Below, piece by piece: positions 45,628 through 64,000 of a DNA stretch of 64,000 nt. The position numbers were made by a program, and so were the translations under genes. The notes under the pieces were generated by a model. It was not told where the DNA came from. It saw nothing but the letters and a program-made list of their open reading frames with translations, and searched no databases. The stretch comes from an uncultured Thermodesulfobacteriota bacterium (GTDB lineage Bacteria; Desulfobacterota; B13-G15), in NCBI GenBank assembly GCA_964611295.1, contig CAZSWV010000001.1:1869-65868 (forward strand), written 5' to 3'. The first letter of the stretch is position 1, and every line of letters begins with the position of its first letter.

Positions 45628-45679
45628 AAGATCCCTTCTCTTGATCCCGAGCTTGATAAGGGCATCTATTTATATCTTC

Positions 45680-46581: not shown

Positions 46582-46610
46582 TTGACGTTTTGATAATTAT
46601 GTGTTAAAAG
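46582..46610 (+). promoter_or_regulatory. candidate sigma70-type promoter for the adh-aor unit
   Basis: TTGACG (46582-46587), a 17-nt spacer, then TAAAAG (46605-46610). It sits in a 136-nt AT-rich divergent intergenic region. Confidence 0.35.
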
Positions 46611-46637
46611 ACAATTTGGAAATTTCAAAAAAAACTT

Positions 46638-47903
46638 ATGAGGGTACAAATGGAAAAGGAAGGGATAGTGTGGCCTATGGATGTACCGTTATTGCGTACT
46701 GTCACCACCACCTTTAACGCTCCTGAGTCCAAGTTGCTGATAAATTCCTTTTTCATGCCTAAGGTCTTCTACGGATTGGCTGGCTTACAGTTATTTGTGG
46801 GGTCAATGGCCCAACTGGGGAGGAAGAAGGCCTTTATCGTGACAGACAAAGGGGTCAAGGGATTGGCTTCTATTGTGGAGAAGGCCTTGAGGGGTGTGGG
46901 GATTGAAGTGAAGGTGAACGAGGGGGTAGAACCAGAGGTTCCCCTTCATGTCCCTCGGCAGATGGCCGAAGAGATGTCACAGTGGGGTCCGGATCTTATA
47001 GTAGCAGTGGGTGGTGGCAGTGTTATGGATACGGCCAAGGTGAGTTGGATCCTTTATGAGGTGCCTGAAGCCGATCTTGTAGCGATAGATCCTATGAAGC
47101 CCCTTGGATTGAGGAAGAAGGCCCTTTTGGCCTGTATCCCTACGACTTCCGGTACGGGTTCTGAGGCCACAAATGTCGCCGTTGTACATGACGAGAGCGT
47201 AAGCCCTGCTCGTAAAGAGGGGGTACTTCACCCAGAACTTTATCCGGATTTTGCGGTCCTTGATCCGAGGTTTGTAGTCCGTATGCCTAAGGACCTTACC
47301 CTTTGGACGGCCATGGACGCCTTGTCGCATGCGGTAGATTGTTATCTCTGTAGGTCGAGTAACCCTATTTCGGATGCTTTGGCTGTTAAGGCCATAAAGA
47401 TGATCTTTACATATCTACCGCTTGTGCTTGAAAGGCTCGATAACTTACAGTTGCGTTTGAGGATGCAGGTGGCAGCAATGATAGCGGGGGCTGCTTTTTC
47501 CAATGGTGGGATTGGCACAACGCATGCCCTGGCCCACAACATCGGTGCCATCTTTGGGGTCCACCATGGTATGGCCTGTGGGGTTACGATCCCTTACGTG
47601 ATTAAGTTCTATGCCGAAGTGGACGATAAGTTCCTTTCCTTAGCAGAGGAATTGGGGATAAAGGGAGAAGGACGTGAAGAGGTGTTGAGGGCGTTATTGG
47701 ACTATTTCCTTGCCTTTTACAAAAAGGTAGGGGCGCCTTTGACCATGAGGGATTTGGGTATTAAGGAGGAGGACTTTAAAGCCAAAGAGGACCTTTTCGT
47801 TAAGTACGCCTTGATGGACCCGACAGGTCCCATGGCACCTCGACAGCCCTCATATGAGGAGATGCGTCAGTTGATAGAAGACGTGTATTACGGGAGGGTG
47901 TGA
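46638..47903 (+). CDS. iron-containing (type III) alcohol dehydrogenase
   Basis: Has GGGSVMDTAK and the metal-binding His cluster HALAHNIGAIFGVHHG. The start is uncertain (ATG 46638, 46650 or 46680). Confidence 0.9.
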   Translation: MRVQMEKEGIVWPMDVPLLRTVTTTFNAPESKLLINSFFMPKVFYGLAGLQLFVGSMAQLGRKKAFIVTDKGVKGLASIVEKALRGVGIEVKVNEGVEPEVPLHVPRQMAEEMSQWGPDLIVAVGGGSVMDTAKVSWILYEVPEADLVAIDPMKPLGLRKKALLACIPTTSGTGSEATNVAVVHDESVSPARKEGVLHPELYPDFAVLDPRFVVRMPKDLTLWTAMDALSHAVDCYLCRSSNPISDALAVKAIKMIFTYLPLVLERLDNLQLRLRMQVAAMIAGAAFSNGGIGTTHALAHNIGAIFGVHHGMACGVTIPYVIKFYAEVDDKFLSLAEELGIKGEGREEVLRALLDYFLAFYKKVGAPLTMRDLGIKEEDFKAKEDLFVKYALMDPTGPMAPRQPSYEEMRQLIEDVYYGRV

Positions 47904-47904
47904 G

Positions 47905-49683
47905 ATGAAGGGCTATCATGGTAAGGCCTTGCAGGTGGATTTAAACACAGGTGAAATAAGGGAAGTAGGGATAGCGGAGGAACTTTTGAGGAGTTTTGTA
48001 GGCGGTTGTGGGTTGGCCGCTGTATTGCTCTATAAACATCTCCATAAGGACCTCGATCCCCTTTCGCCTGAGGCCCCCCTTGCCTTCGCTACAGGTGTCT
48101 TTACTGGTTTTTCACCTTTTTCCGGACGTCTGGCGATCGGGGGCAGATCGCCTTTGACGAACCTTTGGGGTGAAACTACCGTTGGGGGGTTTTTTGCAGT
48201 TGAGCTTAAGCGTTTTGGGATAGATGTGCTCCTGGTTAAGGGGAAGGCGCAAAAGCCGGTATACCTTTGTCTCAAGGAAGGAAAGGCAGAGCTGAAGGAT
48301 GCCTCGGACCTTTGGGGAAAGAAGGTTTCTGAAGTCTCTTCCCTTTTAAAGCAGAAAGAAGGGGAAAGGGTAAGGCTCCTCTGCATAGGTCCAGCAGGTG
48401 AAAGGCTTGTCAGGTTTTCGAGCATCATGGATGAGAACCACAGGGCAGCGGGCAGGACCGGCCTTGGTGCGGTCATGGGGTCGAAGAACCTAAAGGCCAT
48501 TGTAGTTCAGGGGAAGGAAGGACTTCCCGAGGTGGCCGACCAAGGAAGGTTAAAAGAGGTGTATTCACAGACCTTGGATAAGATCTCGGCAAATCCCGGA
48601 AGGGAACTCTGGCACACTTACGGTACCCTTATGTACACTACACAGGGTTACGAATTGGGAGATACTCCTGCCAAGTACTTCCAAGAGGGGGTATTTCCGG
48701 CCTTTAGGATCTCCGGTGAAGCCATGTTGGACAACTACGAGGTTAAAAACGAGGGTTGTGCCTTGTGTCCTGTCATATGTGGTCATCGGGTAAGGGGCGT
48801 CAAGATGGAATATGAGTCTGTGGCAGCCTTGGGTTCTAACTGTGGGGTATTCGACCTAGAGGGGCTCCTTGACGCCGTTGAGGTTTGTAACGAGATGGGG
48901 ATGGACACGATATCCGCCGGGGTAACGGTGGGGTTTGCCATGTACCTGACCGAAAAGGGGGTCCTTAAGGATGGGATCCGCTGGGGCGACAGCAAGGCCG
49001 TGGTGAGGTTGTTGGAGCAGATAGCCTTGAGGGAAGGTATAGGTGACCTATGGGCGGAAGGGACCATGAGGGTAGCCGAGAGGTTAGGGGTTGATCCAGA
49101 GGAAGCGGCGCATGTAAAAGGGCTTGAGGTCCCTATGCATGATCCAAGGGCCTTCAGCATGCAAGGGCTGTGTTATGCCACAGGTGTCAGGGGAGCCTGT
49201 CACATGAGGTCTGACTACTTTACGGTGGACATAGCTGCGGCCCCCATACCCGAATTAGGGGTTGTGCCAGGTGACAGGTTTGAAGAGAGCGAGCAAAAGG
49301 TCAAGATGATGGTAGTGCACCAGAACGTCAAGGAAGTTTGGAACTCAGGGGTTATATGTATGCTCGGTATGTTTGACATAAATGACCTGTGTACCTTTTA
49401 CGGAGCTATAACGGGGATAGAGCTTAAGCCGCAAGATGTCTCCAATCTCGGTGAGAAGAGCTATATGTTGAAAAGGCTTCTGAACCTGAAGTTGGGGATG
49501 ACAAAAGGTCATGAGAGGCTCCCCAAAGTTGTAACTATGCCCTTGAAGAAAGGGGGAACTAGGGGTTTTTCGCCCAACCTAAGTAAGACCCTTGAACTTT
49601 ACTACAGGATTCGACAGCTAAAGGAGGACGGTTATCCTTCTGAGCAGAAATTGGAGGAACTTGGGCTGAAGGAGTTCGTGTAA
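47905..49683 (+). CDS. aor: aldehyde:ferredoxin oxidoreductase family tungstopterin enzyme
   Basis: 592 aa with N-terminus MKGYHGKALQVDLNTGEI...FVGGCGLAA, the [4Fe-4S] motif CALCPVIC, and GVRGACHMRSD. Confidence 0.9.
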   Translation: MKGYHGKALQVDLNTGEIREVGIAEELLRSFVGGCGLAAVLLYKHLHKDLDPLSPEAPLAFATGVFTGFSPFSGRLAIGGRSPLTNLWGETTVGGFFAVELKRFGIDVLLVKGKAQKPVYLCLKEGKAELKDASDLWGKKVSEVSSLLKQKEGERVRLLCIGPAGERLVRFSSIMDENHRAAGRTGLGAVMGSKNLKAIVVQGKEGLPEVADQGRLKEVYSQTLDKISANPGRELWHTYGTLMYTTQGYELGDTPAKYFQEGVFPAFRISGEAMLDNYEVKNEGCALCPVICGHRVRGVKMEYESVAALGSNCGVFDLEGLLDAVEVCNEMGMDTISAGVTVGFAMYLTEKGVLKDGIRWGDSKAVVRLLEQIALREGIGDLWAEGTMRVAERLGVDPEEAAHVKGLEVPMHDPRAFSMQGLCYATGVRGACHMRSDYFTVDIAAAPIPELGVVPGDRFEESEQKVKMMVVHQNVKEVWNSGVICMLGMFDINDLCTFYGAITGIELKPQDVSNLGEKSYMLKRLLNLKLGMTKGHERLPKVVTMPLKKGGTRGFSPNLSKTLELYYRIRQLKEDGYPSEQKLEELGLKEFV

Positions 49684-49691
49684 AAGGGCCG

Positions 49692-49970
49692 ATGCGCATA
49701 AGGGCTGTCCTTTCGGCTTTACAGTTCAAGGACCTTTGGTCCAAGTTAGGGGGTAAGGTATTGGAATTGAATCTACCCGAAGGCAGTAGGCTTGAGGATG
49801 CCCTTCGCGTCTTATCGGAGAACCTAGGCCTTGACCTCATGGGGATGTTGGAAGGGAAAAAGGTGGTCCTTTTTTACCGTAATTCCGCAGTGTCGATCGA
49901 TAAGGATAGGGAAAAGGACCTCAAGGAAGGGGAAGAACTTTTATTCATAACCCCTCTTATCGGGGGGTAA
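49692..49970 (+). CDS. MoaD/ThiS-family ubiquitin-like small protein ending in Gly-Gly
   Basis: 92 aa with a C-terminal LKEGEELLFITPLIGG followed directly by the stop, matching the MoaD pattern L.dGDE....PP.sGG. The RBS is weak. Confidence 0.6.
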   Translation: MRIRAVLSALQFKDLWSKLGGKVLELNLPEGSRLEDALRVLSENLGLDLMGMLEGKKVVLFYRNSAVSIDKDREKDLKEGEELLFITPLIGG

Positions 49971-49991
49971 AACGCAAAAGGAGGTGGAGTT

Positions 49992-51212
49992 ATGGGAAGG
50001 GGTTTGAGGAAATGGTGTACGTTGGCCTTAGGACTTATGGTCCTATTGGCCCTGGGTGTAGTCCAAGCTAAGGACAAGATAGTTATAGGCCAAGCATGGC
50101 CCCTTTCAGGACCTGGAGCAGGTGCTGCGAGGGTTTCAGGGGGAATGATATACGAGATGTGGGTAAAGGAAGTAAACAAGGCTGGTGGTATCTATGTAAA
50201 ACAATATGGTAAGAAGTTGCCTGTTGAGCTCAAGATCTACGATAACGAGACCGATATAGGTAAGACCACCAAGTTGATAGAGAAGTTGATCCTCGAGGAC
50301 AAGGTGGATTTCGTGCTTCCTCCCTGGGGTACTGCTTTCCTTTATGCTGCTGCAAATATATGTAATAAATACGGTTATATACTTATCGGTGGACCAGGTG
50401 GAGCAGCCAAGCTAAAGGAGCTGGACTTACCGTATTTCTTCCAAGTATTGAACTTCTCTGAAACGCAGATGCCTGCCTTGGCCGAGATCTTCAAAGAGGT
50501 AGGGGTAAAAAGCATAGCTATGATATATCGCGGCGACTTACACGGTGTGGAGTACGCTGGCATTGCCGGTCCGGTTTTCAAACAGGCGGGCTTTCAAGTC
50601 AAGATGATGAAGTCCTTCCCTCCCGATGTCACAAAGGACTTTACGCCATTTCTAAAAGAGGCCAAATCCATGGGGGTGGATGCCTTTTTGGCTGCTTGTT
50701 ACCCACCTGAGGTCATAGCCATCACAGAGCAAGCGATAGCCACAGGGATCAACTTCAACGCCATGTGGTTCAGTGTGGGTCCTTATGACCCGGTGCTTTA
50801 CAGGGACAATTTCGGCGTAAACGTAGTAGAAGGTGTAATGGGTGGTGGTGCTTGGAACCACAAATCATCACCAGGAGCCGCTGAACTGGTAAAGTTGCAC
50901 AAACAGTATTATAAAGTGGAACCCGATTATTGGGGCGCCTTGTATTATTGGTCCTCGCTTCAGCACTTCCAGAAGGCCATAGAAAAGGCTGGGACCTTGG
51001 ACCAGAAGGCCGTACGAGATGTTTTGGCGACTTCGAAGTTCGACACTGCCCTTGGCCCCTATTGGTATGACGAAAAGAGGATGTTGGCCAAAGAATGCCA
51101 CCCAGGCGAAGTCGGACAGTGGCAAAAGGGGGTGTTTGAGGTCATAGACAAGAGCCCTAAGAGGACGGCCAAACCCCTTTATCCTAAGCCTGCGTGGCCT
51201 ACTAAGAAGTAA
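49992..51212 (+). CDS. ABC transporter substrate-binding protein, Liv/type-I PBP family (copy 1)
   Basis: 406 aa with signal peptide LALGLMVLLALGVVQA, then KDKIVIGQAWPLSGPGAGAA. It is followed by livHMGF-type genes. Confidence 0.88.
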   Translation: MGRGLRKWCTLALGLMVLLALGVVQAKDKIVIGQAWPLSGPGAGAARVSGGMIYEMWVKEVNKAGGIYVKQYGKKLPVELKIYDNETDIGKTTKLIEKLILEDKVDFVLPPWGTAFLYAAANICNKYGYILIGGPGGAAKLKELDLPYFFQVLNFSETQMPALAEIFKEVGVKSIAMIYRGDLHGVEYAGIAGPVFKQAGFQVKMMKSFPPDVTKDFTPFLKEAKSMGVDAFLAACYPPEVIAITEQAIATGINFNAMWFSVGPYDPVLYRDNFGVNVVEGVMGGGAWNHKSSPGAAELVKLHKQYYKVEPDYWGALYYWSSLQHFQKAIEKAGTLDQKAVRDVLATSKFDTALGPYWYDEKRMLAKECHPGEVGQWQKGVFEVIDKSPKRTAKPLYPKPAWPTKK

Positions 51213-51230
51213 GGTATCAATTAGAGTAGA

Positions 51231-51261
51231 GGGCAGGGGGTGAGGAGACCACCCCCTGCCC
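51231..51261 (+). other. intercistronic GC-rich stem-loop (12-bp perfect stem, 7-nt loop)
   Basis: GGGCAGGGGGTG-aggagac-CACCCCCTGCCC begins 19 nt after the binding-protein stop. No U-tract follows. Confidence 0.6.
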
Positions 51262-51300
51262 AATAGGGTGGGTTCGAAAAAAGGCCAAAGGGGTAGGAGG

Positions 51301-52173
51301 ATGGTCTTATTACTGAACGTGGTAATCGGCGGGCTTTTAATGGGTGGTATTTATGCCCTTGCCTCTGTGGGGTTGAGCATGCAATATGGCGTGGGACGGG
51401 TACTGAACATAGCCCACGGGGAATTCCTGATGATAGGGGCCTTTTTGGCCTGGACCTTTTATACGAACTGGGCCATAAGTCCATTGCTTACCCTTCCTTG
51501 TGCCGCAGCTTTTTTGTTCCTTATAGGTTTTTCACTTGATAGGAGCCTTTTTTCGCGGTTGCGGTACGTATCGCCTTCTATTGAGGCCTTTGAGGCAAGT
51601 TCCCTTATGGCGTGTTTTGGGCTTCAGTTTATCATCCAGAACATCGCCATCCTCATCTGGGGGGCTGAATTACGGGGATATAACTACCTGGCCGTACCGG
51701 TCAACATAGGTGGTGCGGTCTTTGGGGCAAATAGGCTCATAACTTTGGCCTTTGCCCTGGGGATAAGTTTCGTATTTTACCTTTTCTTGTCCAAGACTCG
51801 GCAGGGTAAGGCTATAAGGGCTTCTTCACAGGACATATATGCTGCAGGGCTCATGGGGATAGATATAAAACACGTCTTAAGCCTTTGTTTTGCGTTTGGC
51901 GCCATGCTTGCTGGGGTAGCGGGGATACTGATAAGCATGATGTACAGCATTCAGACCACCATGGGCATGGAATATACCGTTATAGCTTTAATTGTGATCG
52001 TCCTTGGGGGATTAGGCAGTATAACGGGTAGCCTTATAGGTGGTTTTATCCTTGGTACCATTGGGAGCATTATGAGCTATGTTGAACCAGGGCTGACCCT
52101 AGTGGCTTACTACGTGTTGTTTATGATCCTACTGTTGATAAAGCCTACAGGGCTTATGGGGAGTGGGCGATGA
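51301..52173 (+). CDS. livH: branched-chain-amino-acid-type ABC permease (LivH family)
   Basis: Reads MVLLLNVVIGGLLMGGIYALASVGLSM.... ATG 51301 is preceded by AGGAGG, and the track start 51268 was rejected. Confidence 0.88.
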   Translation: MVLLLNVVIGGLLMGGIYALASVGLSMQYGVGRVLNIAHGEFLMIGAFLAWTFYTNWAISPLLTLPCAAAFLFLIGFSLDRSLFSRLRYVSPSIEAFEASSLMACFGLQFIIQNIAILIWGAELRGYNYLAVPVNIGGAVFGANRLITLAFALGISFVFYLFLSKTRQGKAIRASSQDIYAAGLMGIDIKHVLSLCFAFGAMLAGVAGILISMMYSIQTTMGMEYTVIALIVIVLGGLGSITGSLIGGFILGTIGSIMSYVEPGLTLVAYYVLFMILLLIKPTGLMGSGR

Positions 52174-53099
52174 AGATACCTAAGGCGGTGGGATTAGGAG
52201 GTTTGCTAGTCTTCTTAAGTATCCTCCCTACTATAGGTTCCCCATATTCCATAGTTCTTTTAAGCAATATCTTCATGTACATCGTCCTTACCGTAAGTTG
52301 GGTGCTGTTTTCGGCTCCTACAGGGTATATATCTTTGGCATCGGCTGCCTTTTTCGGAGCAGGGATATACTCAGCAGCTGTGCTAAGTTTCAAAGTCCCC
52401 TTTGTGATTATTGTGGCAATAGGTGCATCAGTGGGATTCCTTCTGGCGTTGTTTATAGGAGTCCTTACCCTGAGACTTAAAGGCATATACTTTGCTATGT
52501 TCACCTTCGGCTTTGTAGAGTTACTCCTCCATTTCGTACTCTGGTATGAAGCGAATATTACAGGTACCACGGGAAGAGTGGTGATGACGCTTTCTAATAA
52601 AGAGGTATATTATTTGATGCTTGTTTTATGCGTGTTGCTTATAACAGTAACATACCTTGTTCACCGTTCACGTTATGGAATAGCTTTACGTAGCATAGGC
52701 CAAAACGAAATAGCTTCAGAGCATGTGGGAGTAAACGTTGTTAAACTTAAAGTTATCACCTATGCCCTCAGTGCGGCATTTGTGAGTGCTGCAGGTGTAA
52801 TTATGGCGACAAGGTGGACATACATTGATCCGAAGATAGCCTTTAATCCCCTTTATTCCTTTATACCTATCTTTATGGCTATATTCGGAGGGGTCAGGTA
52901 TTTATATGGCCCTATAATTGGGGCTATTGTGTTTACTTATCTGCAGGAAGTCCTTACCACGCGTTTCCCCTATTATTACATGTTGACCTTTGGCCTTCTT
53001 ATGGTGCTTATAATCGCGTATATGCCTGAAGGTATAACTGGGATCATTAGGACCTTATTGAAGCGAAAGGAGGTGGAGGCAGGACATGGCCTTGCTTGA
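52170..53099 (+). CDS. livM: branched-chain-amino-acid-type ABC permease (LivM family)
   Basis: 309-aa polytopic protein reading GYISLASAAFFGAGIY.... Confidence 0.87.
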   Translation: MKIPKAVGLGGLLVFLSILPTIGSPYSIVLLSNIFMYIVLTVSWVLFSAPTGYISLASAAFFGAGIYSAAVLSFKVPFVIIVAIGASVGFLLALFIGVLTLRLKGIYFAMFTFGFVELLLHFVLWYEANITGTTGRVVMTLSNKEVYYLMLVLCVLLITVTYLVHRSRYGIALRSIGQNEIASEHVGVNVVKLKVITYALSAAFVSAAGVIMATRWTYIDPKIAFNPLYSFIPIFMAIFGGVRYLYGPIIGAIVFTYLQEVLTTRFPYYYMLTFGLLMVLIIAYMPEGITGIIRTLLKRKEVEAGHGLA

Positions 53100-53820
53100 G
53101 GGAAAAGGGGTTACCAAGGCCTTTGGCGGTCTCATAGCGGTGAACAAGGTGGATTTCAGGATCGAAAAAGGGGAAATCGTGGGTTTGATCGGTCCAAATG
53201 GGGCTGGTAAGACCACCCTTTTTAACCTGATTTCTGGGGCCATTAAGCTTGACAGGGGTGAGATCGCGCTTGAAGGCAAAAAGATAAGCGGCCGTGGGCC
53301 TCATGAGATATGTAGGATGGGTATTGCGAGGACCTTCCAAGACGTTAAGGTCTTTGGGAACATGAGCGTACTGGAGAACGTGCTCCTTGGGGCGGTATTC
53401 GGAGGAAAGGACGGGAGGTCTATGAGGGAAGCCCAAAAGGTGGCGATGGAGGAAATTGAGTTCTGTGGGCTTAAAGGGTTTGAGAAAGCCTTAGCTAAGG
53501 ATATTCCCCTGGCCTATCAGAAAAGGCTCGAGGTGGCTAGGGCTTTAGCTACAAGGCCTAAACTCCTCATGTTGGATGAGTTGATGGCAGGTTTAAATCC
53601 CACTGAGACCCAAGAAGCCATGGATTTGGTCAAGGCGATAAGGGAAAGGGGGATCACAGTTTTCATGATAGAACATGTCCTTCGTGCCATCATGAACATA
53701 TGCGAGAGGGTGATGGTGTTGCATTATGGGGAAAAGATAGCCGAAGGCACGCCCCAGGAGGTCTGCTCGAACCCTAAGGTCGTGGAAGTCTATTTGGGGG
53801 AGAAGGTATGCTTCGAGTAG
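53086..53820 (+). CDS. livG: ABC transporter ATP-binding protein (LivG family)
   Basis: 244 aa with Walker A GPNGAGKTT and the C-terminal VVEVYLGE. Confidence 0.9.
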   Translation: MALLEGKGVTKAFGGLIAVNKVDFRIEKGEIVGLIGPNGAGKTTLFNLISGAIKLDRGEIALEGKKISGRGPHEICRMGIARTFQDVKVFGNMSVLENVLLGAVFGGKDGRSMREAQKVAMEEIEFCGLKGFEKALAKDIPLAYQKRLEVARALATRPKLLMLDELMAGLNPTETQEAMDLVKAIRERGITVFMIEHVLRAIMNICERVMVLHYGEKIAEGTPQEVCSNPKVVEVYLGEKVCFE

Positions 53821-54512
53821 AAAAGTTGAGCGTAGCCTTTGGGAAAATCCGGGTTTTATGGGATGTCTCCTTAAGTGTCAACGAAGGCGAGATAGTGGCT
53901 ATCATCGGGGCCAATGGCGCTGGTAAGACCACTTTGCTGAATGCCATTTCTGGTTTAGTCAAGCCTTTGTCCGGTACCATTGAGTTTATGGGACAACGGA
54001 TCGATCACCTCCCGCCCCACAAGATCGTGGAGATGGGCATTGTACACATACCTGAAGGGGGAAAGCTGTTCATGGAGATGAACGTGAAGGAGAACTTGGA
54101 AATGGGGGCCTTTCCCCCAAGGGCTTGGAAGGATAGGGAAAAGGAGGCACAGAAGCTTTACGAACTCTTTCCCCGTTTGAAAGAGAGACAAAGGCAATTG
54201 GCGAGGACCTTGAGCGGAGGCGAAAGGCAGATGTTGGCCATAGCCCGCGGTTTGATGTCGAGGCCACGGCTTTGTATGTTCGACGAACCTTCCTATGGGC
54301 TTGCTCCGTTGGTGGTGAGGGAGATCATGGAGGTGATAAAGACGTTACCTGCAAAAGGGATTTCTGTGCTTTTAGTGGAGCAAAACGTCAACCTCGCCCT
54401 CGAAGTGGCACACAGGGGTTATGTGCTTGAGAATGGACGGATAGTATTAGAGGGGCCAAGCCATGAACTTTTGCAGACGGAGATGATAAAAAAGGCCTAT
54501 TTAGGCATGTGA
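53808..54512 (+). CDS. livF: ABC transporter ATP-binding protein (LivF family)
   Basis: 234 aa with Walker A GANGAGKTT, signature LSGGERQ, and the C-terminal KKAYLG. Confidence 0.9.
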   Translation: MLRVEKLSVAFGKIRVLWDVSLSVNEGEIVAIIGANGAGKTTLLNAISGLVKPLSGTIEFMGQRIDHLPPHKIVEMGIVHIPEGGKLFMEMNVKENLEMGAFPPRAWKDREKEAQKLYELFPRLKERQRQLARTLSGGERQMLAIARGLMSRPRLCMFDEPSYGLAPLVVREIMEVIKTLPAKGISVLLVEQNVNLALEVAHRGYVLENGRIVLEGPSHELLQTEMIKKAYLGM

Positions 54513-54534
54513 AAATAAAAAGAGGAGGTGTGAG

Positions 54535-55485
54535 ATGGGCGTAAAGGGTAAGGGTTTGAGGGTTATTTTGGGGGTTTTATTGATGATGTGCCTTTTTGTG
54601 GTCTCAGCTTATGCGAAAAGGGAAATAGATCCTTTGGTGTCACCGGATTGGGTTGGGGCCAATATCGTAAACCCAAAGTTAGTGATCCTTGATGTGAGGA
54701 GCGCTCAGGAATATGCCAAAGGGCACATACCTGGCGCCATAAATGTCCCAGTGGCTTTTCCGGCTTCGGCATGGACTGCGCCAAAGGGCAACGTGGTATT
54801 CGAAGTGCCTCCTGACGAAGAGCTCGTAAAGACCATACGCAATGCCGGTATCAAAGAGGACTCATGGGTGGTGATAGTGGGTAGGACCACAGGACCCATG
54901 CCCTATTACGCCATGGCTGATGCTACACGGGTTGCCATAACCTTGCTTTATGCGGGTATTGAGAACGTGGCCATAATGGAAGGTGGATTCGACAAGTGGG
55001 TGTGGGAAGGGAAGCCCGTTTCAAAAGTAGCCGAAAAACCTAAGCCTAGCGACTTCAAGGGCAACTTCAAAAAGGAGATGTTCGCCACCAAGGAAGAGGT
55101 ACTAGAGAAGATTGGGAAGGCTGTGATCATAGATTCCCGCGATGCCGATGTTTATTTCGGAGTGAAAACGGAGCCTTGGAGCCCAAGGCCTGGTCACATC
55201 CCAACGGCTAAAAGTCTCCCTACGCCTTGGTTGTGGGACATGAGGAAGGACTACGGTGTGTACCGTGAAAGGGAGGTGTTGGCCGAAATGGTGAAGACCT
55301 TAATAGGGGAACCAACTGCTGACAAAGAGGTCATCGTATATTGTGGCGTGGGTGGTTATGCCAGCACCATGTACTTTGTCTTAAAGGAGGTCCTCGGTTA
55401 TCCCAATGTGAAGATGTACGATGGTTCAGCTCAAGAGTGGAACCTAGATCCAAATGCGCCTTTGGTGAAGTTCAAATGGGAATAA
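54535..55485 (+). CDS. secreted two-domain rhodanese (thiosulfate/3-mercaptopyruvate sulfurtransferase family)
   Basis: 316 aa with signal peptide VILGVLLMMCLFVVSAYA, a first domain containing DVRSAQEYAKGHIPGAINVP, and active-site loop VYCGVGGYAS in the second domain. Confidence 0.82.
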   Translation: MGVKGKGLRVILGVLLMMCLFVVSAYAKREIDPLVSPDWVGANIVNPKLVILDVRSAQEYAKGHIPGAINVPVAFPASAWTAPKGNVVFEVPPDEELVKTIRNAGIKEDSWVVIVGRTTGPMPYYAMADATRVAITLLYAGIENVAIMEGGFDKWVWEGKPVSKVAEKPKPSDFKGNFKKEMFATKEEVLEKIGKAVIIDSRDADVYFGVKTEPWSPRPGHIPTAKSLPTPWLWDMRKDYGVYREREVLAEMVKTLIGEPTADKEVIVYCGVGGYASTMYFVLKEVLGYPNVKMYDGSAQEWNLDPNAPLVKFKWE

Positions 55486-55541
55486 GAAAGGGCTGATTGA
55501 GATATAAAAAGACCAAATCGAAAAAAACGGAGGTGTAGAGG

Positions 55542-56177
55542 ATGGCGGGGGATTTAGTGCAGGCAATAGCTGACTTACAGGAAGATGAAGCCTTAAAGAT
55601 CGTAAAGGAGCGCTTGGAGGCCGGGGAGGATCCCCTCAAGATCCTAGAAGATGCGCGGACTGGACTTGAAATTGTAGGAAAGCGTTTTGCAAGTGGTGAG
55701 TATTTCATTCCAGATCTTATATATTCAGGCGAGATAATGAGCCAAATTACCGAAATAGTTAAGCCTAAGATCGGAGAAGTCCAGCGCGAGGCCAAAAAAT
55801 TGGGCAAGGTGGTAATTGGTACTGTAGCGGGTGATATCCATGACATAGGCAAGAACATAGTGGTGTTCATGCTTGAGGTAAACGGTTTTGAAGTGCACGA
55901 CCTTGGTGTGGATGTGCCGCCTGAGAAGTTCGTCCAGAAGGTGAAGGAGACCGGTGCCACAATTTTGGGGTTAAGCGGTTTCCTTACCTTGGCCTTTGAT
56001 TCCATGAAGAGGACCATAGAGGCCTTAAAAGAGGCTGGCCTTAGGGAAAGGGTAAAGGTGATGATAGGGGGTGGACAGGTCACTGAAGAGGTAAGGAAGT
56101 ATACAGGTGCCGATGCCTATGGCAAAGACGCTATGGCGGCTGTGACCATTGCCAAAAGTTGGGTAGGGGCGGCTTAG
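55542..56177 (+). CDS. cobalamin-binding corrinoid protein (MtaC/MtbC/O-demethylase CP type)
   Basis: 211 aa with an N-terminal helical cap (LVQAIADLQEDEA) and the B12 motif DxHxxG (GDIHDIGKN). It also has SGFLT and MIGGG. Confidence 0.9.
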   Translation: MAGDLVQAIADLQEDEALKIVKERLEAGEDPLKILEDARTGLEIVGKRFASGEYFIPDLIYSGEIMSQITEIVKPKIGEVQREAKKLGKVVIGTVAGDIHDIGKNIVVFMLEVNGFEVHDLGVDVPPEKFVQKVKETGATILGLSGFLTLAFDSMKRTIEALKEAGLRERVKVMIGGGQVTEEVRKYTGADAYGKDAMAAVTIAKSWVGAA

Positions 56178-56222
56178 AATTGGCCTTACCCCTGTGAAAA
56201 CCAAGTTAAGGAGGTTACGAGG

Positions 56223-57584
56223 ATGGAAAAGAAATGGGAGGAGATGTCCCCTGATGAAAGGAGGGAGTCATTAATACAGAGGTGGCTTTCCCCTAAGGCC
56301 CCAGATGGAAGCGATATAAAGTTCAAGAGTCCAGAGGCAGAGGAGGCCTATAAAGCACGGGTGAGGAGGTTAGTGGCAGCCATTAAACTGGAAGAAACAC
56401 CGGATCGAGTCCCCGTATTGCCGCTTCCCAATATGTTTCCGGTTTACTATTACGGCATAACGGTCCAAGAGGCCATGTACGATTATGAGAAGTGTGGCGC
56501 TGCCTTTAGGAAGTTCGTGCTTGATTTTGAACCGGACGCTACTATGGGATGTATGGGGCCTGGTCCAGGGAAGTTTTACGACTTGGTGGATTACAAACTC
56601 TACAAATGGCCAGGGCATGGTCTGCCTCCTGATCGTTGTTATCAAGCGGTGGAAGGCGAGTATATGAAGGCAGATGAATACGATATGTTAATCCAAGATC
56701 CTACTTATTATTTCCTTACGGTTTATTTTCCTCGTGCCTTTGGGGCGTTACAGGGGTTAAGCCTGTTGGCACCGCCCACAAACGTCTTGGAGTTTTATCC
56801 CACCTTTTCAGCTGTCAATTTCATCCCCTTTGCCCTCCCGCCGGTTCAAGAGGCCCTAAAGGTTATGGCGGAGGCAGGAGCTGAGGTATTGCGATGGTTG
56901 GAGGCTGTGGTTGCGTGGAACGTAGACATAATATCCAGTGGTTACCCCTTGCTTGCTGGTGGTGGATGCAAAGCCCCCTTTGACATGATAGGGGATACTT
57001 TGAGGGGGACCAAAGGGATAATGCTTGACATGTACCGACAACCCGATAAACTCCTCCAGGCTTTGGAAGCCATGGTGCCCTTTATGGTGAGGATGGGGGC
57101 TTCAGCGGCAAAGATGAACGGCAATCCCATGGTCTTCATCCCCCTTCACAAGGGTGCTGATGGGTTCCTTTCTGACCAACAGTTTAAGACCTTTTATTGG
57201 CCGACCTTGAAAAAGGTCATCCTTGGGCTCATCGAGGAAGGTTGTATACCTTTGCTCGTGGCAGAAGGCGGTTACAACTCGAGGCTTGAGACAATAGCCG
57301 ACCTGCCTAAAGGGAAGGTAGTGTGGATGTTCGATCAAACGGATATGGCGAAGGCCAAAAAGGTCCTGGGAGATGTAGCCTGTATCATGGGGAATGTACC
57401 CACGGATTTGCTCATAGTTGGAACCACCCAGCAGGTCAGAGATTACGTGAAAAAGCTCATCGACGACTGCGCACCAGGGGGAGGATTTATACTTGCAAAC
57501 GGGGCCTTCTTTGACGAGGCGAAGGCAGAGAACATCAAAGCAATGGTCGATTTTGCCAAAGAGTACGGTGTATACCGAAGGTAG
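56223..57584 (+). CDS. uroporphyrinogen-decarboxylase (URO-D) family methyltransferase, candidate substrate:corrinoid methyltransferase (MT-I)
   Basis: 453 aa. The overall pattern resembles URO-D/MtaA-like methyltransferases of corrinoid systems, and the gene is sandwiched between the corrinoid protein and activation genes. The family call is from memory, not a computed alignment. Confidence 0.65.
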   Translation: MEKKWEEMSPDERRESLIQRWLSPKAPDGSDIKFKSPEAEEAYKARVRRLVAAIKLEETPDRVPVLPLPNMFPVYYYGITVQEAMYDYEKCGAAFRKFVLDFEPDATMGCMGPGPGKFYDLVDYKLYKWPGHGLPPDRCYQAVEGEYMKADEYDMLIQDPTYYFLTVYFPRAFGALQGLSLLAPPTNVLEFYPTFSAVNFIPFALPPVQEALKVMAEAGAEVLRWLEAVVAWNVDIISSGYPLLAGGGCKAPFDMIGDTLRGTKGIMLDMYRQPDKLLQALEAMVPFMVRMGASAAKMNGNPMVFIPLHKGADGFLSDQQFKTFYWPTLKKVILGLIEEGCIPLLVAEGGYNSRLETIADLPKGKVVWMFDQTDMAKAKKVLGDVACIMGNVPTDLLIVGTTQQVRDYVKKLIDDCAPGGGFILANGAFFDEAKAENIKAMVDFAKEYGVYRR

Positions 57585-57593
57585 TGGTAGCAA

Positions 57594-58277
57594 ATGCCCA
57601 TCTGTAAAGGGATCTCGCTGCCCCTAAACCCTGAGGAGGTGATAAAGCGCTTTAAGGGCGGAAGGGGGGAAAGGGCAAAGGCTTTGGCCTTCGAAGTCCT
57701 TGAGGAGAGCAGGGCGCTCATCGACCCTGGAGTCGCCTGGGAAGAATATCCGGTAATGGGCTTAAAGGACGGAGAAGCCTTCCTTGAGGGCGGTTGGACC
57801 CTTCGCCTTTTGGTCCAACCGCCCTCAAGGGGAAAGGTGGAAAGGGTTGTTGCTTTGGCTGGTACCATAGGGGATAAGATCGAGCAATGGGTATCTAGAC
57901 TTTTCAAAGGCGGTGAGGCTTTAAAGGCTACAATAGCGGACCTTGTAGGCAGCCTTTACGTGGAAGTCCTAATGGATAGGGCCTGTGAATGTATGAGCAG
58001 GTATGCGCTGGGTTATGGTCTTAGGTCTAGTCACCTTTTTAGCCCAGGTATGCCGGGCATGCCCCTTGAAGAACAGCCTAAGTTGGTGGAGATGGCCAAG
58101 GGGGCACGTGTAGGCATCCACACTACCGAAAAGGGCATGATGGTCCCGGAGAAGTCCTTCTGTGGAGTTATAATCTTAGGGGAAGACGTCCCCAGTTGGG
58201 ATAGACATGTTTTCTGTAAACGTTGTGCCTTACGGGACAGTTGCCCTTTCAGAAGTGAAATAATTCATGGCCTTTAA
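57594..58277 (+). CDS. standalone methionine-synthase (MetH) activation-domain-like protein
   Basis: 227 aa. FSPGMPGMPLEEQPKLVEMA...GIHTTEKGMMVPEKSFCGVIILG resembles the MetH reactivation-domain core. It has a C-terminal CKRCALRDSC. Confidence 0.6.
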   Translation: MPICKGISLPLNPEEVIKRFKGGRGERAKALAFEVLEESRALIDPGVAWEEYPVMGLKDGEAFLEGGWTLRLLVQPPSRGKVERVVALAGTIGDKIEQWVSRLFKGGEALKATIADLVGSLYVEVLMDRACECMSRYALGYGLRSSHLFSPGMPGMPLEEQPKLVEMAKGARVGIHTTEKGMMVPEKSFCGVIILGEDVPSWDRHVFCKRCALRDSCPFRSEIIHGL

Positions 58278-60102
58278 GGTCTTTTTCGAACCTATGGGTA
58301 AAAGCGGTGAATGTATGGAAGGCGAAACCGTACTCGAATGCGCTCATCGTCTCGGTATTTCACTGCTCAGTTCCTGTGGTGGAAGAGGAGTATGTGGAAA
58401 CTGTCGAGTGAGGGTTTTAGAGGGTGAGGTCAATGGACCTACGGCTTCTGAAAGGGAGTTCTTCGAACAAAAGGAACTTCAATCAAACTGGAGGCTTGCT
58501 TGTCAAGTCTCACCCCTGTCGCATTTGCGGGTTTTTGTGCCTTTGGAGTCCTTAGGATTTGCCGAAAGGTTCCAAGTGGAGGGAATGGAAAGGGGGGTAG
58601 AGTTTAAGCCTGTGGTGAGGGCTAAAGAGGTCTCCCTTATCCCTCCTTCTTTGAACGACGTACGGGCTGATGTGGACAGGGTTGTGGACGCCTTAGCTGA
58701 GGGGGGCGTGGAACTTGAGTCTGTTGACCTTTTGGCTTTGAAAGAAGCAGGAAGGTCGTTGAGGAACTGGGGGTGGAGGGCAAAGGCGGTGGTTTGGAAG
58801 AAGGAGTTAATAGGCCTCCTTCCAGGGACCTCCTCTCCTCTTGGTGTGGCTGTTGACTTGGGGACTACTAAGATCGCCCTCTATCTCCTCGATCTCGAAG
58901 GGGGTAAGACGCTTTCTTCGATGGGCGTACTTAACCCACAGGTCACTTTTGGGGAGGATGTCATTACCCGGATACAGAAGGCAAGGTCTTCTCCAGAGAA
59001 GGCCGAAGAGCTGAAGCGGGTGGTCCTTGAAGCCGTAAACGGAGCCGTGGACGAACTTCGGAAGGGGGTAGGCGCTGAGCCGAGTCAGATAGTAGAGATG
59101 GTCTTTGTGGGCAATACGGCCATGCACCACCTCTTTTTGGGTTTGCCTGTGGACTGGCTTGCCCAATCCCCTTTTGTTCCGACTTTGAACAGGGCCTTTT
59201 CCTTAAAGGCCCGTGAGCTCGGCCTGAAAGTGGCAACAGGGGCTTATATGCATTTTTTGCCAAACATAGCGGGTTTTGTGGGTAGCGATCATGTAGCGGC
59301 CTTACTTGCCAGTGGCGTCTTAGAGGAAAAGGGGCCGTTGTTGCTTTTGGACATTGGTACGAACACTGAGATATCGCTGATCAAAGAGGGCAACATCCAT
59401 ACCGTTTCTACCCCTTCGGGACCGGCCTTTGAGGGGGCTCATCTGAAGTACGGTATGAGGGCCCTTGCGGGAGCCATCGAACGGGTTAGGATTGCCCACG
59501 GGAAGGTTTGGTATAAGACCATTGGGGATCTCCCTCCCCGGGGTATTTGTGGTTCAGGGATAATCGATGCGGTTGCTGAGCTCTACAGGGCAGGCCTTCT
59601 AGATGAGAGGGGAAGGTTTGTAGACGGCCACCCCAACTTCAGAGAAGTGGACGGCGTGAAGGAGTTTTTATTGGTTGAAGGGCCCGAAGCCGAAGGTAGG
59701 ACCTTGTCCATAAGCCAAAAGGACGTACGGGAACTCCAATTGGCGAAGGCATCCATAAGGGCAGCAATAGAGGTGTTATTGAAGGAGGCACGTTGTGACT
59801 ACGAAGAACTTGAAAAAGTAGTGATAGCAGGTGCTTTTGGTACCTATATAAGCATAAGGAGTGCCCTTACCTTAGGGATGTTTCCTCCCCTGCCCCTTGA
59901 GAAGTTCCTGCAGGTGGGCAATGCCGCTGGGATAGGGGCGAAGATGGCCCTTTTGTCCGAAAGAAAGCGCAAAGAGGCCGAAAGCATAGCGAGTAAGGCT
60001 CGCTATATAGAGCTTGCTGCTACTGATCTTTTCCGAGGGTATTTGCTTGAAGCCTTGGCCTTAGGCGAATATCGGTTTGACCATAAAGGCAGGAGGTGTT
60101 GA
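58267..60102 (+). CDS. RACo-type reductive activator of corrinoid proteins (2Fe-2S ferredoxin + ASKHA ATPase, DUF4445)
   Basis: 611 aa with N-terminal plant-type 2Fe-2S SCGGRGVCGNCRV. ASKHA phosphate motifs are VAVDLGTTKIA and LLLDIGTNTEI. Confidence 0.85.
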   Translation: MAFKVFFEPMGKSGECMEGETVLECAHRLGISLLSSCGGRGVCGNCRVRVLEGEVNGPTASEREFFEQKELQSNWRLACQVSPLSHLRVFVPLESLGFAERFQVEGMERGVEFKPVVRAKEVSLIPPSLNDVRADVDRVVDALAEGGVELESVDLLALKEAGRSLRNWGWRAKAVVWKKELIGLLPGTSSPLGVAVDLGTTKIALYLLDLEGGKTLSSMGVLNPQVTFGEDVITRIQKARSSPEKAEELKRVVLEAVNGAVDELRKGVGAEPSQIVEMVFVGNTAMHHLFLGLPVDWLAQSPFVPTLNRAFSLKARELGLKVATGAYMHFLPNIAGFVGSDHVAALLASGVLEEKGPLLLLDIGTNTEISLIKEGNIHTVSTPSGPAFEGAHLKYGMRALAGAIERVRIAHGKVWYKTIGDLPPRGICGSGIIDAVAELYRAGLLDERGRFVDGHPNFREVDGVKEFLLVEGPEAEGRTLSISQKDVRELQLAKASIRAAIEVLLKEARCDYEELEKVVIAGAFGTYISIRSALTLGMFPPLPLEKFLQVGNAAGIGAKMALLSERKRKEAESIASKARYIELAATDLFRGYLLEALALGEYRFDHKGRRC

Positions 60103-60951
60103 ATGGAAACTAGGATTTCCAGCGCTACAAAGGAAGTAGTCATTTCCCCCTCAAGGCCCACTGTGCTTATCGGTGAGAGGATAAACCCTGCGGGTAAAAA
60201 ACGCCTCCAAGAAGCCCTGAAGTCAGGCGACCTGAGCTTAGTGCGTGAAGAGGCCATCATGCAAGTACAAGCGGGGGCGGACGTCCTCGACGTATGCGTG
60301 GGGACCTTTGGCGTAGACGAGGTCAAGCTTTTGCCTGAAGCCGTGAAGGTGATCATGGAAGCTGTAGATGTCCCTTTGTGCATAGACAGCGCAAATCCTA
60401 AGGCCCTTGAGGCGGCCCTTAAGGTTTACAAGGGAAAGGCCCTTGTTAACTCGGTCACTGGGGAAGAGCGATCTTTAAGGGAGGTCTTACCAATAGTAAA
60501 GGACTACGGAGCAGCGGTCATAGGCCTTGTGCAAGACGACGAAGGTATTCCCAAAGATGCCGACAGGAGGGTGGCCATAGCCCATAAAATTGTGGAAAGG
60601 GCTGAAGCCTTAGGGATTGACCGAAGTGATGTGGTGATAGACTGCCTCGCCTCTTCTGTAGGTGCGGACCTTTCTGCTGGGAAGGCCGTCCTTGAGGCCA
60701 TAAGGAGGGTAAGGGAGGAGCTTGGGGTCAACATCACCCTGGGGGCTAGCAACATCTCCTTTGGTCTTCCTGACAGGGAGCTTCTGAACAGGACTTTCAT
60801 ATCCATGGCCATAGCTTTTGGTGCTACATGTTTGATAGTGGACGTGGCACAGGTTAGGGCCGCAGCAGTAGCTGCAGATCTCATCCTAGGGCGCGACCCC
60901 AGGGCGCGCAGATATATTTCCCTTTATAGGGAACGCCCATATGGAAAGTGA
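60103..60951 (+). CDS. pterin-binding methyltransferase (MeTr/AcsE/MtrH-like; methyl-corrinoid:tetrahydrofolate MT-II candidate)
   Basis: 282 aa reading LIGERINPAGKKRLQEALKSGDLSLVREEAIMQVQAGADVLDV, with NSVTGEE and LGASNISFGLP of the DHPS-like TIM barrel. Confidence 0.82.
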   Translation: METRISSATKEVVISPSRPTVLIGERINPAGKKRLQEALKSGDLSLVREEAIMQVQAGADVLDVCVGTFGVDEVKLLPEAVKVIMEAVDVPLCIDSANPKALEAALKVYKGKALVNSVTGEERSLREVLPIVKDYGAAVIGLVQDDEGIPKDADRRVAIAHKIVERAEALGIDRSDVVIDCLASSVGADLSAGKAVLEAIRRVREELGVNITLGASNISFGLPDRELLNRTFISMAIAFGATCLIVDVAQVRAAAVAADLILGRDPRARRYISLYRERPYGK

Positions 60952-60963
60952 AGGAGGTGCGAG

Positions 60964-62169
60964 ATGAAGAGATTGGCGTTGTTTTTGGTCTTCATTTGGT
61001 CACTTTTTGCCTTTTTGGCCCAGGCTAAGGAGAAGTTAGTAATAGGTCAAGCCTGGCCTCTGACAGGTCCCCTTGCTGGTGCTGCGAGGCTTTCGGCTGG
61101 GACCACTTACGAGATGTGGGTAAAGGAGGTGAACAAAAAAGGGGGAATTTACGTGAAACAATATGGTAAGAGGCTTCCTGTAGAGCTTAAGGTTTACGAC
61201 AATGAAAGCGATATAGGGAAAACGGTGAGGTTATTGGAAAAGTTGATTCTGGAAGATAAGGTGGACTTTGTACTACCTCCTTGGGGGACTGCATGGCTTT
61301 ACGCTGCAGCCAACGTCTGTAACAAATACGGTTATGTGCTAATTGGAGGTGCTGGTGGAGCTACAAAACTTAAGGAGCTTACCCTGCCTTACTTTTTCCA
61401 GGTTTTAAACTTCGCCGAGACCCAAGGGCCGGCTTTGGCCCAGATATTTAAGGAGGTAGGGGTAAAGAGTGCGGCTATCTACTACAGAAGCGACCTACAC
61501 GGTCTGGAATATGCTGGGATATTAGCCCCTTATTTCAAACAACTGGGGATCCAAATAAAGGTCATAAAAGGCTTTCCTCCTGATGTAGTAAAGGACTTTA
61601 CGCCCTTCTTAAAAGAAGCAAGTGCAGCAGGGGTTGATGCATTTGTTGTTGCCTGTTATCCACATGAAAGCGTGGCAATTACCGAACAGGCCATAGGTTC
61701 GAACATAAACTTTAACGCTATTTGGTTTAGCGTTGGGCCTTATGATCCTGTAGTGTACAGGGATACCTTTGGTTCCAACGTAGTGGAAGGGGTAATGGGT
61801 GGAGGTGCGTGGAACGCCAAATCGTCCCCTGGGGCAGCGGAACTTGTCAAAAAACACAAGGAATACTTTGGAGTAGAACCCGCATATTGGGGTACCCTTT
61901 ATTTTTACTCTTCTCTGGAACATTTCCAACAGGCCATAGAGAAGGCAGGTACCCTTGACCAGAAGGCCGTAAGGGACGTCTTGGCAAAAAGCAAGTTCAA
62001 CACATCCCTGGGCCCCTATTGGTATGACGAAAGGCAAATCCTAGCAAAAGAATGTCACCCTGGACAGATCGGACAATGGCAAAAAGGCATCTTCGAGGTA
62101 ATAGACACAGGCCCAAAACGCACAGCACCACCTGTTTACCCAAAGCCCAATTGGCCTAAAAAGAAATAA
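60964..62169 (+). CDS. ABC transporter substrate-binding protein, Liv/type-I PBP family (copy 2, close paralogue of 49992..51212)
   Basis: 401 aa with signal peptide LALFLVFIWSLFAFLAQA. The mature sequence is about 80-85% identical by eye to copy 1 over the first ~150 residues. It begins 13 nt after the MeTr gene. Confidence 0.88.
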   Translation: MKRLALFLVFIWSLFAFLAQAKEKLVIGQAWPLTGPLAGAARLSAGTTYEMWVKEVNKKGGIYVKQYGKRLPVELKVYDNESDIGKTVRLLEKLILEDKVDFVLPPWGTAWLYAAANVCNKYGYVLIGGAGGATKLKELTLPYFFQVLNFAETQGPALAQIFKEVGVKSAAIYYRSDLHGLEYAGILAPYFKQLGIQIKVIKGFPPDVVKDFTPFLKEASAAGVDAFVVACYPHESVAITEQAIGSNINFNAIWFSVGPYDPVVYRDTFGSNVVEGVMGGGAWNAKSSPGAAELVKKHKEYFGVEPAYWGTLYFYSSLEHFQQAIEKAGTLDQKAVRDVLAKSKFNTSLGPYWYDERQILAKECHPGQIGQWQKGIFEVIDTGPKRTAPPVYPKPNWPKKK

Positions 62170-62287: not shown

Positions 62288-62316
62288 TTGACAATTGTGG
62301 GGCTGATATGATAAAA
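62288..62316 (+). promoter_or_regulatory. candidate sigma70-type promoter for the second ABC ATPase pair
   Basis: TTGACA (62288-62293), a 17-nt spacer ending in TG, then ATAAAA (62311-62316). It lies inside a 190-nt gap. Confidence 0.4.
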
Positions 62317-62359
62317 GGTAAAGCCGCACAACTTAGGTGATTTCGGTAAGGAAAAGCAG

Positions 62360-63951: not shown

Positions 63952-64000
63952 GAGGTGAGGCCATCGGAGGACTTTTCTCTGCACTTCTGGACAACGCAAG

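Follow-up and report, generated by a model that had tools for sequence, protein, structure and literature searches.

A 15-gene array for alcohol/aldehyde oxidation, Liv-type uptake and corrinoid-dependent methyl transfer in an uncultured Thermodesulfobacteriota bacterium, with a methoxylated aromatic as the likely substrate

Why would a bacterium line up, on one strand and with almost no space between them, genes for alcohol and aldehyde oxidation, for a Liv-type importer and for corrinoid-dependent methyl transfer? The arrangement lies in a 64,000-nt stretch of DNA (hereafter the window) on contig CAZSWV010000001.1 of an uncultured Thermodesulfobacteriota bacterium, whose 1.6-Mb, 94% complete genome originates from hot-spring metagenomes. 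An earlier note on this DNA had proposed a single transcription unit of 16 genes for the catabolism of methoxylated aromatic compounds. With moderate confidence, we explain the array as a whole as a 15-gene operon of an accessory catabolic island for a methylated, likely methoxy-aromatic substrate. The gene content, order, spacing and conservation, the island boundaries and the genome context on which this explanation builds are direct observations.

The open reading frame (ORF) listing and Pfam searches returned 15 consecutive genes at 46651-62169 (Table 1); the count of 16 was thus one too high, while the placement of every gene on the + strand was correct. They encode an iron-type alcohol dehydrogenase (Fe-ADH), an aldehyde:ferredoxin oxidoreductase (AOR) and a MoaD/ThiS-like protein; a Liv importer with two substrate-binding proteins (SBP1 and SBP2); an exported rhodanese; and a methyl transfer system consisting of a corrinoid protein (CoP), a substrate:corrinoid methyltransferase (MT1), a methyl-corrinoid:tetrahydrofolate methyltransferase (MT2), the reductive activator RACo and a 227-aa protein (p227). 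The ORF of Fe-ADH opens at 46638, and alignment to the locus of a same-genus relative points to 46651 as its likely start. All 14 junctions were measured and came, in gene order, to 1, 8, 21, 55 or 88, -4, -14, -13, 22, 56, 45, 9, -11, 0 and 12 nt, so the earlier statement that no gap exceeds 88 nt is correct. At five junctions the genes overlap or lie 0-1 nt apart, and the overlaps within LivH/LivM/LivG/LivF are 4, 14 and 13 nt. Co-directionality alone is weak evidence, since the + strand codes for most of the window; the array adds to it short or overlapping junctions and a gene order that is kept in a relative.

That relative, a genome of the same genus (G003, record label Thermodesulfobacteriota), has the identical 15-gene order at ~37-86% amino-acid identity, the same upstream neighbors, junctions of <=80 nt and both SBP copies. 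Its SBP2 ortholog (L001 ~14931) has TAG in frame at a position that reads TGG (Trp) in the window, which is either the mark of a pseudogene or an assembly error. The window has a ZIP-family metal transporter gene divergent from the array; G003 lacks a ZIP gene in the interval from the MBL-fold gene to ADH. A further genome of the genus, G004 (95% complete), is without MT1, and there the ZIP gene adjoins mraZ-mraW and the whole island is missing. Because ZIP abuts mraZ in G004, ~24 kb (46.6 to ~70.8 kb in window-equivalent coordinates) appears to be gained or lost as one block, and the 15 genes are probably the first, tightly packed operon of a ~24-kb accessory island between the ZIP gene and mraZ. 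The remainder of the island begins with a second Liv-type importer operon and continues past the window with an AMP-binding protein, LivH2, LivM2, SBP3 and a CoA ligase, before mraZ at ~70.9 kb (window-equivalent); this second-importer module also adjoins MT1 clusters in Desulfobacteraceae loci. No shared direct or inverted repeat of >=10 nt was found at the island edges. The distribution of MT1 is patchy (9 of 41 relatives in the order and 37 of 301 genomes in a sample of the phylum), and in a FastTree phylogeny the window MT1 groups, with weak support, with Bathyarchaeia and one Dehalococcoidales clade and not with other Thermodesulfobacteriota. This placement fits lateral spread.

From these arrangements, and from the signals described below, we infer the transcript structure. 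A motif derived from the sigma-70-type promoter candidates at 46582 and 62288 and from the G003 relative, TTGACR-N13-17-TGnTAAAR, occurs at three sites in the 64 kb (29873-29901, 46582 and 62288) against 0.06 expected, with 29873 as the only independent check because the motif was built on the other two and the relative. All three sites lie on the + strand and each heads a gene array, and no other site with <=1 mismatch was present on either strand of the 64-kb window. The G003 locus contains the motif once, directly upstream of ADH. The rarity of the motif in the window, partly circular as it is, and its recurrence before ADH in G003 count in favor of the promoter previously proposed at 46582. 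The architecture shared by the three array-head promoters may represent a strong housekeeping form or a shared regulatory class. An Rfam search of 45.5-64 kb identified no riboswitch or known RNA.

The largest gap, 88 nt after SBP1, holds a perfect 12-bp GC stem (51231-51261) without a U-tract, as the earlier note had described, and the 106-nt stretch around it folds at -36.2 kcal/mol (z-score -3.5). G003 has a hairpin of unlike sequence at the matching position, and the structure fits a conserved mRNA-stabilizing or attenuating element. The hairpin at 62215, which had been taken as the 3' end, fared differently: its fold was no better than shuffled sequence (z-score -0.23), it was absent from the terminator scan list, and we found no defined terminator at the 3' end of the array. 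The organism does have strong terminators, located behind SBP3 and, directly ahead of mraZ, behind the CoA ligase. With a weak hairpin at 62215 and canonical terminators only further on, the 3' end is poorly defined, and transcription may continue into the next operon. The signal behind SBP3 consists of two identical 33-nt hairpins, each with a 14-bp stem and spaced 155 nt apart (window-equivalent ~68878-69065; L081 6747-6779 and 6902-6934); the second copy extends over the predicted start of the CoA ligase ORF, and the pair looks like a duplicated terminator or a repeat element.

Could weak promoters inside coding sequence instead drive the importer and/or methyltransferase genes apart from ADH-AOR, so that the blocks are neighbors on one island and not one operon? 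Two-mismatch matches to the motif occur inside the array only at 47188, 54315 and 57025, and the last of these has a perfect TTGACA and also appeared in the consensus scan; internal sites with <=1 mismatch are lacking, however, and promoter-like consensus matches in the array fall below the shuffled expectation (10 vs. 17.8). Terminator-like sites within the array likewise showed no excess (22 vs. 22.9 in shuffles). The GC hairpin behind SBP1 might end part of the transcripts, and in other phyla the oxidoreductase genes belong to different families and take different places, at times on another strand, with respect to the importer and CoP-MT1, which marks the blocks as separable modules. Against such a division stand the five tight junctions, the absence of any gap >88 nt, and the arrangement in G003, where only 12 nt separate the rhodanese and CoP genes and the motif stands solely before ADH. 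Metatranscriptome contigs from a strain 95-99% identical cover ADH, AOR, SBP1, the LivG/LivF overlap and the MT1/p227 junction, and one RNA library holds genes of all three blocks, although the contigs show neither a single molecule nor strand nor end. Stretches without RNA cover (45000-46267, 58314-58947 and 61484-62117) were not used as evidence. On this balance we regard several transcription units as somewhat unlikely and a single transcript from 46582 across the 15 genes, as judged from the DNA, as plausible.

The methyltransferase core has the make-up of an ordinary O-demethylase-type four-component system. CoP, the only copy in the genome, carries the DxHxxG motif as DIHDIG; MT2 scored 299.5 bits against NCBIfam NF005719 (methyl-THF:corrinoid methyltransferases; cut-off 259); and RACo shows the complete set of four RACo Pfam domains, the 2Fe-2S domain among them. 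The genome encodes a single CoP/RACo/MT2 set. The structural model of p227 matches TM0269 (1J6R), which has the MetH activation-domain fold (Foldseek E 1e-10, TM 0.68/0.77), and the cysteines of its C-terminal triad (C208, C211 and C217) are invariant. At 56160-56200, ahead of MT1, the CoP stop codon is overlapped by a small hairpin, GGGTAGGGGC...GCCTTACCC. The same UroD-fold MT1, DxHxxG CoP, pterin-binding MT2 and RACo-type activator are encoded together in the O-demethylase systems MtvABC of Moorella thermoacetica, Odm/Vdm of Acetobacterium dehalogenans and MtoABCD of Methermicoccus shengliensis and Archaeoglobus fulgidus (PMC8630106, PMC8359953), which also deliver the methyl group to a Wood-Ljungdahl C1 carrier. 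The window system differs from them in having what appears to be a separate, uncharacterized 450-aa MT1 subfamily; a Liv-type ABC importer in place of their MFS transporters; and, in addition, Fe-ADH/AOR, the exported rhodanese and the MetH-activation-like protein.

What does MT1 demethylate? Its only close solved relative is CdmB, which it matched with a profile E of 5e-53 over a nearly full-length alignment. CdmB sits next to the O-demethylases MtvB, OdmB, VdmB and MtoB (PMC13222342), yet it rejects methoxy-aromatics, so the substrate of MT1 is unreadable from homology. Searches of the ESM Atlas returned only "UroD family" clusters. Invariant residues of the MT1 family include H132, H309 (within PLHKGADGF) and C387, and the family is without the His-x-Cys...Cys zinc site of the thiol-handling UroD-fold methyltransferases. 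Bathyarchaeal MtgB (PMC10989822) is a different protein of ~300 aa and falls outside this family, and a preprint on arsenic demethylation in which mtvB is mentioned has no bearing on it. A second MT1 paralog in the genome (G000:C3:67021-68313; L082 8013-9320) is 46% identical and has no corrinoid protein of its own; its neighbors are a TRAP carboxylate transporter (DctPQM), a gene of the FAA-hydrolase family and an activase fusion of BcrAD/BadFG type with 1403 aa. It would share the single CoP/MT2/RACo set, which we count in favor of a methoxy-aromatic substrate. More distant MT1 paralogs showed in-frame stops, which may be terminal stop codons caught in the match.

The kinship with CdmB raises the prospect of a haloalkane (chloromethane) dehalogenating system, as in CdmBCA of A. 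dehalogenans (PMC13222342; PDB 9RUI), which follows the same three-component logic. CdmBCA, however, has no importer, oxidoreductases or rhodanese, and MT1 is not a close CdmB ortholog in a cdmBCA-type cluster: the relation is distant, identity is low, and the PLHKGADGF motif that is invariant in the window's MT1 family, HKGADG core included, is absent from CdmB. A gas needs no binding-protein-dependent importer, and in such a scheme the alcohol/aldehyde oxidoreductases and CoA ligases would be idle. We consider this alternative very improbable.

Orthologs of MT1 with 56-82% identity occur in Desulfobacterota, Dehalococcoidia, Anaerolineae, Spirochaetota, Bacillota and Bathyarchaeia. We clustered all ORFs in 80 MT1 loci with 10-kb flanks. 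The most frequent neighbors were the corrinoid protein (58 loci), Liv ATPases (41), LivH (34), a binding protein (27) and MT2 (26), followed by one Zn-ADH cluster (22), RACo (19), AOR-family enzymes (18), short-chain dehydrogenases/reductases (SDR; 17), rhodanese (16) and p227 (15), and then by AMP-dependent ligases (9), aldehyde dehydrogenase (ALDH; 7) and Fe-ADH (4). Fused LivF-MT1 proteins were also found. The window pairs Fe-ADH with AOR, whereas other lineages have a benzyl-alcohol-type Zn-ADH together with ALDH or AOR-like enzymes; the closest solved structure to the Zn-ADH of the 22 loci is benzyl alcohol dehydrogenase 1F8F (E 4e-116 vs. ~1e-70 for the next group). Because the combination recurs across phyla, a functional link of importer, oxidoreductases and CoP-MT1 is well supported. 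The claim that the three blocks belong together is thus upheld by an order kept in G003, by their absence as a whole from G004 and by their recurrence in five bacterial phyla and Bathyarchaeia. Pairs of SDR and MoaF-domain genes, as well as C_GCAxxG_C_C proteins, also recur beside the importer/MT1 genes (L009, L046, L054, L058 and L062; other phyla).

The importer has the full make-up of the Liv/HAAT family (TC 3.A.1.4), namely a Peripla_BP_6 protein, two BPD_transp_2 permeases and two ATPases with the BCA_ABC_TP_C tail. Aromatic-acid binders of Rhodopseudomonas palustris (PDB 4EYG, 4EVQ, 4F8J and others), which share the fold and transporter family of SBP1 and SBP2, show that Liv-type importers can carry vanillate, 4-hydroxybenzoate and coumarate; they are only 15-18% identical to the window proteins, and amino-acid and urea binders match equally. 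The model of SBP1 (pLDDT 91) gave the same picture, with amino-acid, urea and aromatic-acid binders matching its fold about equally. A ligand call for SBP1 and SBP2 is impossible because sequence and fold searches match all three kinds of binder alike. In A. fulgidus, growth on 2-methoxyphenol induces genes for a branched-chain-type ABC transporter and an acyl-CoA ligase (PMC8359953). The presence of benzyl-alcohol-type Zn-ADH, ALDH and CoA ligases in related loci is likewise suggestive of methoxylated aromatics, and on the gene content such a compound is our best guess for the substrate, with a slightly better than even chance. Acetogens reportedly couple aromatic aldehyde oxidation with O-demethylation, according to work from the Drake laboratory in the 1990s.

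AOR combines AFOR_N and AFOR_C domains and is nearest to characterized AOR (E 1.7e-124 to Pyrococcus furiosus AOR, 1AOR, vs. 1.8e-50 to BamB). The pairing of a single-subunit tungstopterin AOR with an iron ADH is known from other anaerobes (P. furiosus AOR, 1AOR; AOR routes of acetogens), and as in those pairs ferredoxin is the presumed partner of the window AOR. Unlike them, the window pair is embedded in an importer/methyltransferase operon and is followed by the MoaD-like Gly-Gly protein, whose C-terminus is PLIGG in both the window and G003. The 1.6-Mb genome contains six AOR-family genes, one of them with an in-frame TGA (C5:99479-100615).

Which way do these two enzymes run? Reduction of an acid to an aldehyde and on to an alcohol by AOR and ADH is an established route in acetogens and hyperthermophiles. 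In that direction the pair would act as an electron sink, for example from acetate to ethanol, and dispose of the reducing power from methyl oxidation. The best solved relatives of Fe-ADH are the ADH domains of AdhE, that is, of ethanol dehydrogenase type, and we did not find DsrA in the window genome (94% complete), so that another electron sink would be needed; methoxydotrophic Bathyarchaeum tardum, moreover, makes ethanol and has AOR (PMC10477458). In the equivalent position, however, other lineages have an NAD-type ALDH, which cannot reduce acids, and a benzyl-alcohol-type Zn-ADH. For that reason oxidation from alcohol to aldehyde to acid is the more economical reading, and we judge the reductive direction quite unlikely.

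The exported rhodanese does not fit into this scheme. It has a signal peptide and the catalytic loop YCGVGGY; among the 16 rhodanese homologs in MT1 loci all have a signal peptide and the loop is invariant, while the Bathyarchaeia copies add a C-terminal membrane anchor. In the 301-genome sample of the phylum, the subfamily occurs in six of seven genomes with an orthologous MT1 (>=58% identity) vs. 13 of 294 others, a co-occurrence for which we claim no statistical test because related genomes are not independent. On these sequence patterns the rhodanese is a genuine, conserved part of the module. A role in MoaD thiocarboxylation or in sulfuration of the tungsten cofactor is ruled out, since an exported protein cannot serve cytoplasmic MoaD or cofactor chemistry. 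The "sulfur transfer" that the earlier note had listed among the functions of the array, with cytoplasmic MoaD out of the enzyme's reach, is left unexplained, while the link that it drew between uptake, oxidation and methyl transfer agrees with the recurrent gene context.

UroD-fold methyltransferases include the methylthiol enzymes MtsA and MtpA, and the methyl donor could be some other methylated compound taken up by the Liv importer, the leading candidates being methylthio compounds (3-methylthiopropionate, methional or methionol) or S-methyl amino acids, with the exported rhodanese handling sulfur chemistry at the cell surface. Such a donor would suit the conservation of the exported tandem rhodanese, invariant loop included, in Desulfobacterota and Bathyarchaeia modules, its co-occurrence with orthologous MT1, and the classical role of Liv-type binding proteins as amino-acid binders, and homology gives no substrate for MT1 that would speak against it (PMC13222342). 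MT1, however, retains only H132, H309 and C387 as invariant residues and is without the His-x-Cys...Cys zinc site; the benzyl-alcohol-type Zn-ADH, ALDH and CoA ligases of related loci better fit the oxidation of aromatic side chains; and the rhodanese was not seen in ~64 of the 80 related loci, many of which are on short contigs. We therefore hold a methylthio-type donor to be unlikely. A bolder idea, which we rate as improbable, is that the catalytically intact rhodanese is an obligatory extracytoplasmic partner of the importer/methyltransferase module in bacteria and archaea. If true, the substrates would be sulfur-linked or sulfurized methylated organics, or persulfide transfer at the surface would ready the substrate for uptake. 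In either case, organic sulfur chemistry in anoxic sediments and hot springs would be tied to B12-dependent demethylation in a way not described before.

How, then, would an operon for a methoxylated aromatic work? Transcription would most likely run from the 46582 promoter through all 15 genes, with the hairpin after SBP1 probably stabilizing or partly attenuating the message and thereby giving a surplus of binding protein, and with possible read-through into the second importer operon, which has a promoter of the same type of its own. The Liv importer and its two paralogous SBPs would bring in a methylated organic acid, aldehyde or alcohol, likeliest a lignin-type methoxylated aromatic. Through MT1 the methyl group would then reach the corrinoid protein in its Co(I) state, and through MT2 tetrahydrofolate (THF), while RACo, and perhaps the MetH-activation-like protein too, would re-reduce oxidized corrinoid. 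Where the substrate is present as alcohol or aldehyde, Fe-ADH and AOR would oxidize it to the acid, giving NAD(P)H and low-potential ferredoxin, and the latter could feed CO2 reduction. The substrate and the reaction directions in this scheme we infer from gene content and context. The genome encodes ACS, formyl-THF synthetase (FTHFS) and three MTHFR genes; because these are present and DsrA was not found, methyl-THF most likely enters an acetogenic Wood-Ljungdahl pathway, and the organism would be an acetogen-like or fermentative member of the Thermodesulfobacteriota.

Several observations weigh against this explanation. The conserved exported rhodanese fits no role in the proposed scheme. 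The two binding proteins share 15-22% identity with binders of amino acids, of urea and of aromatic acids without distinction, and Fe-ADH is nearer to AdhE-type ethanol enzymes than to aryl-alcohol enzymes. MT1 scored below the cut-off of every curated NCBIfam family, and CdmB, which acts on haloalkanes, does not accept methoxy-aromatics (PMC13222342). As for the transcript, the rarity of the promoter motif is partly circular because two of its three window sites defined it, and the RNA contigs may contain DNA.

Table 1. Positions of the genes and promoter candidates of the array and its flanks (window coordinates)
Feature	Position	Strand	Evidence or remark
ZIP-family metal transporter gene	45680-46501	-	
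Promoter candidate, sigma-70 type	46582-46610	+	TTGACG, 17-nt spacer, TGT-extended TAAAAG
Fe-ADH	46651-47903	+	Pfam Fe-ADH, ADH_Fe_C
AOR (tungstopterin family)	47905-49683	+	Pfam AFOR_N, AFOR_C
MoaD/ThiS-like protein, 92 aa, Gly-Gly end	49692-49970	+	ThiS match slightly below Pfam cut-off
SBP1 (Liv/HAAT type, signal peptide)	49992-51212	+	Pfam Peripla_BP_6
LivH permease	51301-52173, possible GTG start 51268	+	Pfam BPD_transp_2
LivM permease	52170-53099	+	Pfam BPD_transp_2
LivG ATPase	53086-53820	+	Pfam ABC_tran with BCA_ABC_TP_C
LivF ATPase	53808-54512	+	Pfam ABC_tran with BCA_ABC_TP_C
Tandem rhodanese, exported	54535-55485	+	Pfam Rhodanese twice; signal peptide
CoP	55542-56177	+	Pfam B12-binding PF02310, B12-binding_2 PF02607
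MT1 (UroD superfamily), 453 aa	56223-57584	+	Pfam URO-D
p227, MetH-activation-like, 227 aa	57594-58277	+	weak Pfam Met_synt_B12 match
RACo, ATP-dependent reductive activator of corrinoid proteins	58267-60102	+	Pfam Fer2, RACo_linker, Raco_middle, RACo_C_ter
MT2	60103-60951	+	Pfam Pterin_bind PF00809
SBP2, paralog of SBP1	60964-62169	+	77% identical to SBP1
Second promoter, same type	62288-62317	+	TTGACA, 18-nt spacer, TGA-extended TAAAAG; upstream of second importer operon
Second Liv-type importer operon, start (LivG2, LivF2)	62360-64000	+	Pfam

We found no description of this gene combination in the literature. Compared with described systems, the new elements are an uncharacterized MT1 subfamily that spans two domains of life, its fixed association with a Liv importer, and the exported rhodanese and MetH-activation-like protein; new in this genus is that Fe-ADH, AOR and a MoaD-like gene have joined them in a single 15-gene array. 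In anoxic sediments, peat and the subsurface, the B12-dependent removal of methyl groups from lignin-derived compounds is a major carbon route, and the enzymes assigned to it in uncultured Desulfobacterota, Dehalococcoidia, Anaerolineae and Bathyarchaeia are still uncharacterized. The cluster shows one highly conserved MT1 subfamily, 56-82% identical over two domains, in the company of importer, reactivation, alcohol/aldehyde oxidation and CoA ligase genes. It suggests a partly methoxydotrophic, acetogenic way of life for this hot-spring anaerobe, whose small genome yielded no Dsr, and the same combination of modules recurs in many sediment bacteria and archaea. As such, it provides a concrete gene set for biochemistry, with two conserved parts, the exported rhodanese and the MetH-activation-like protein, that lie outside current models.

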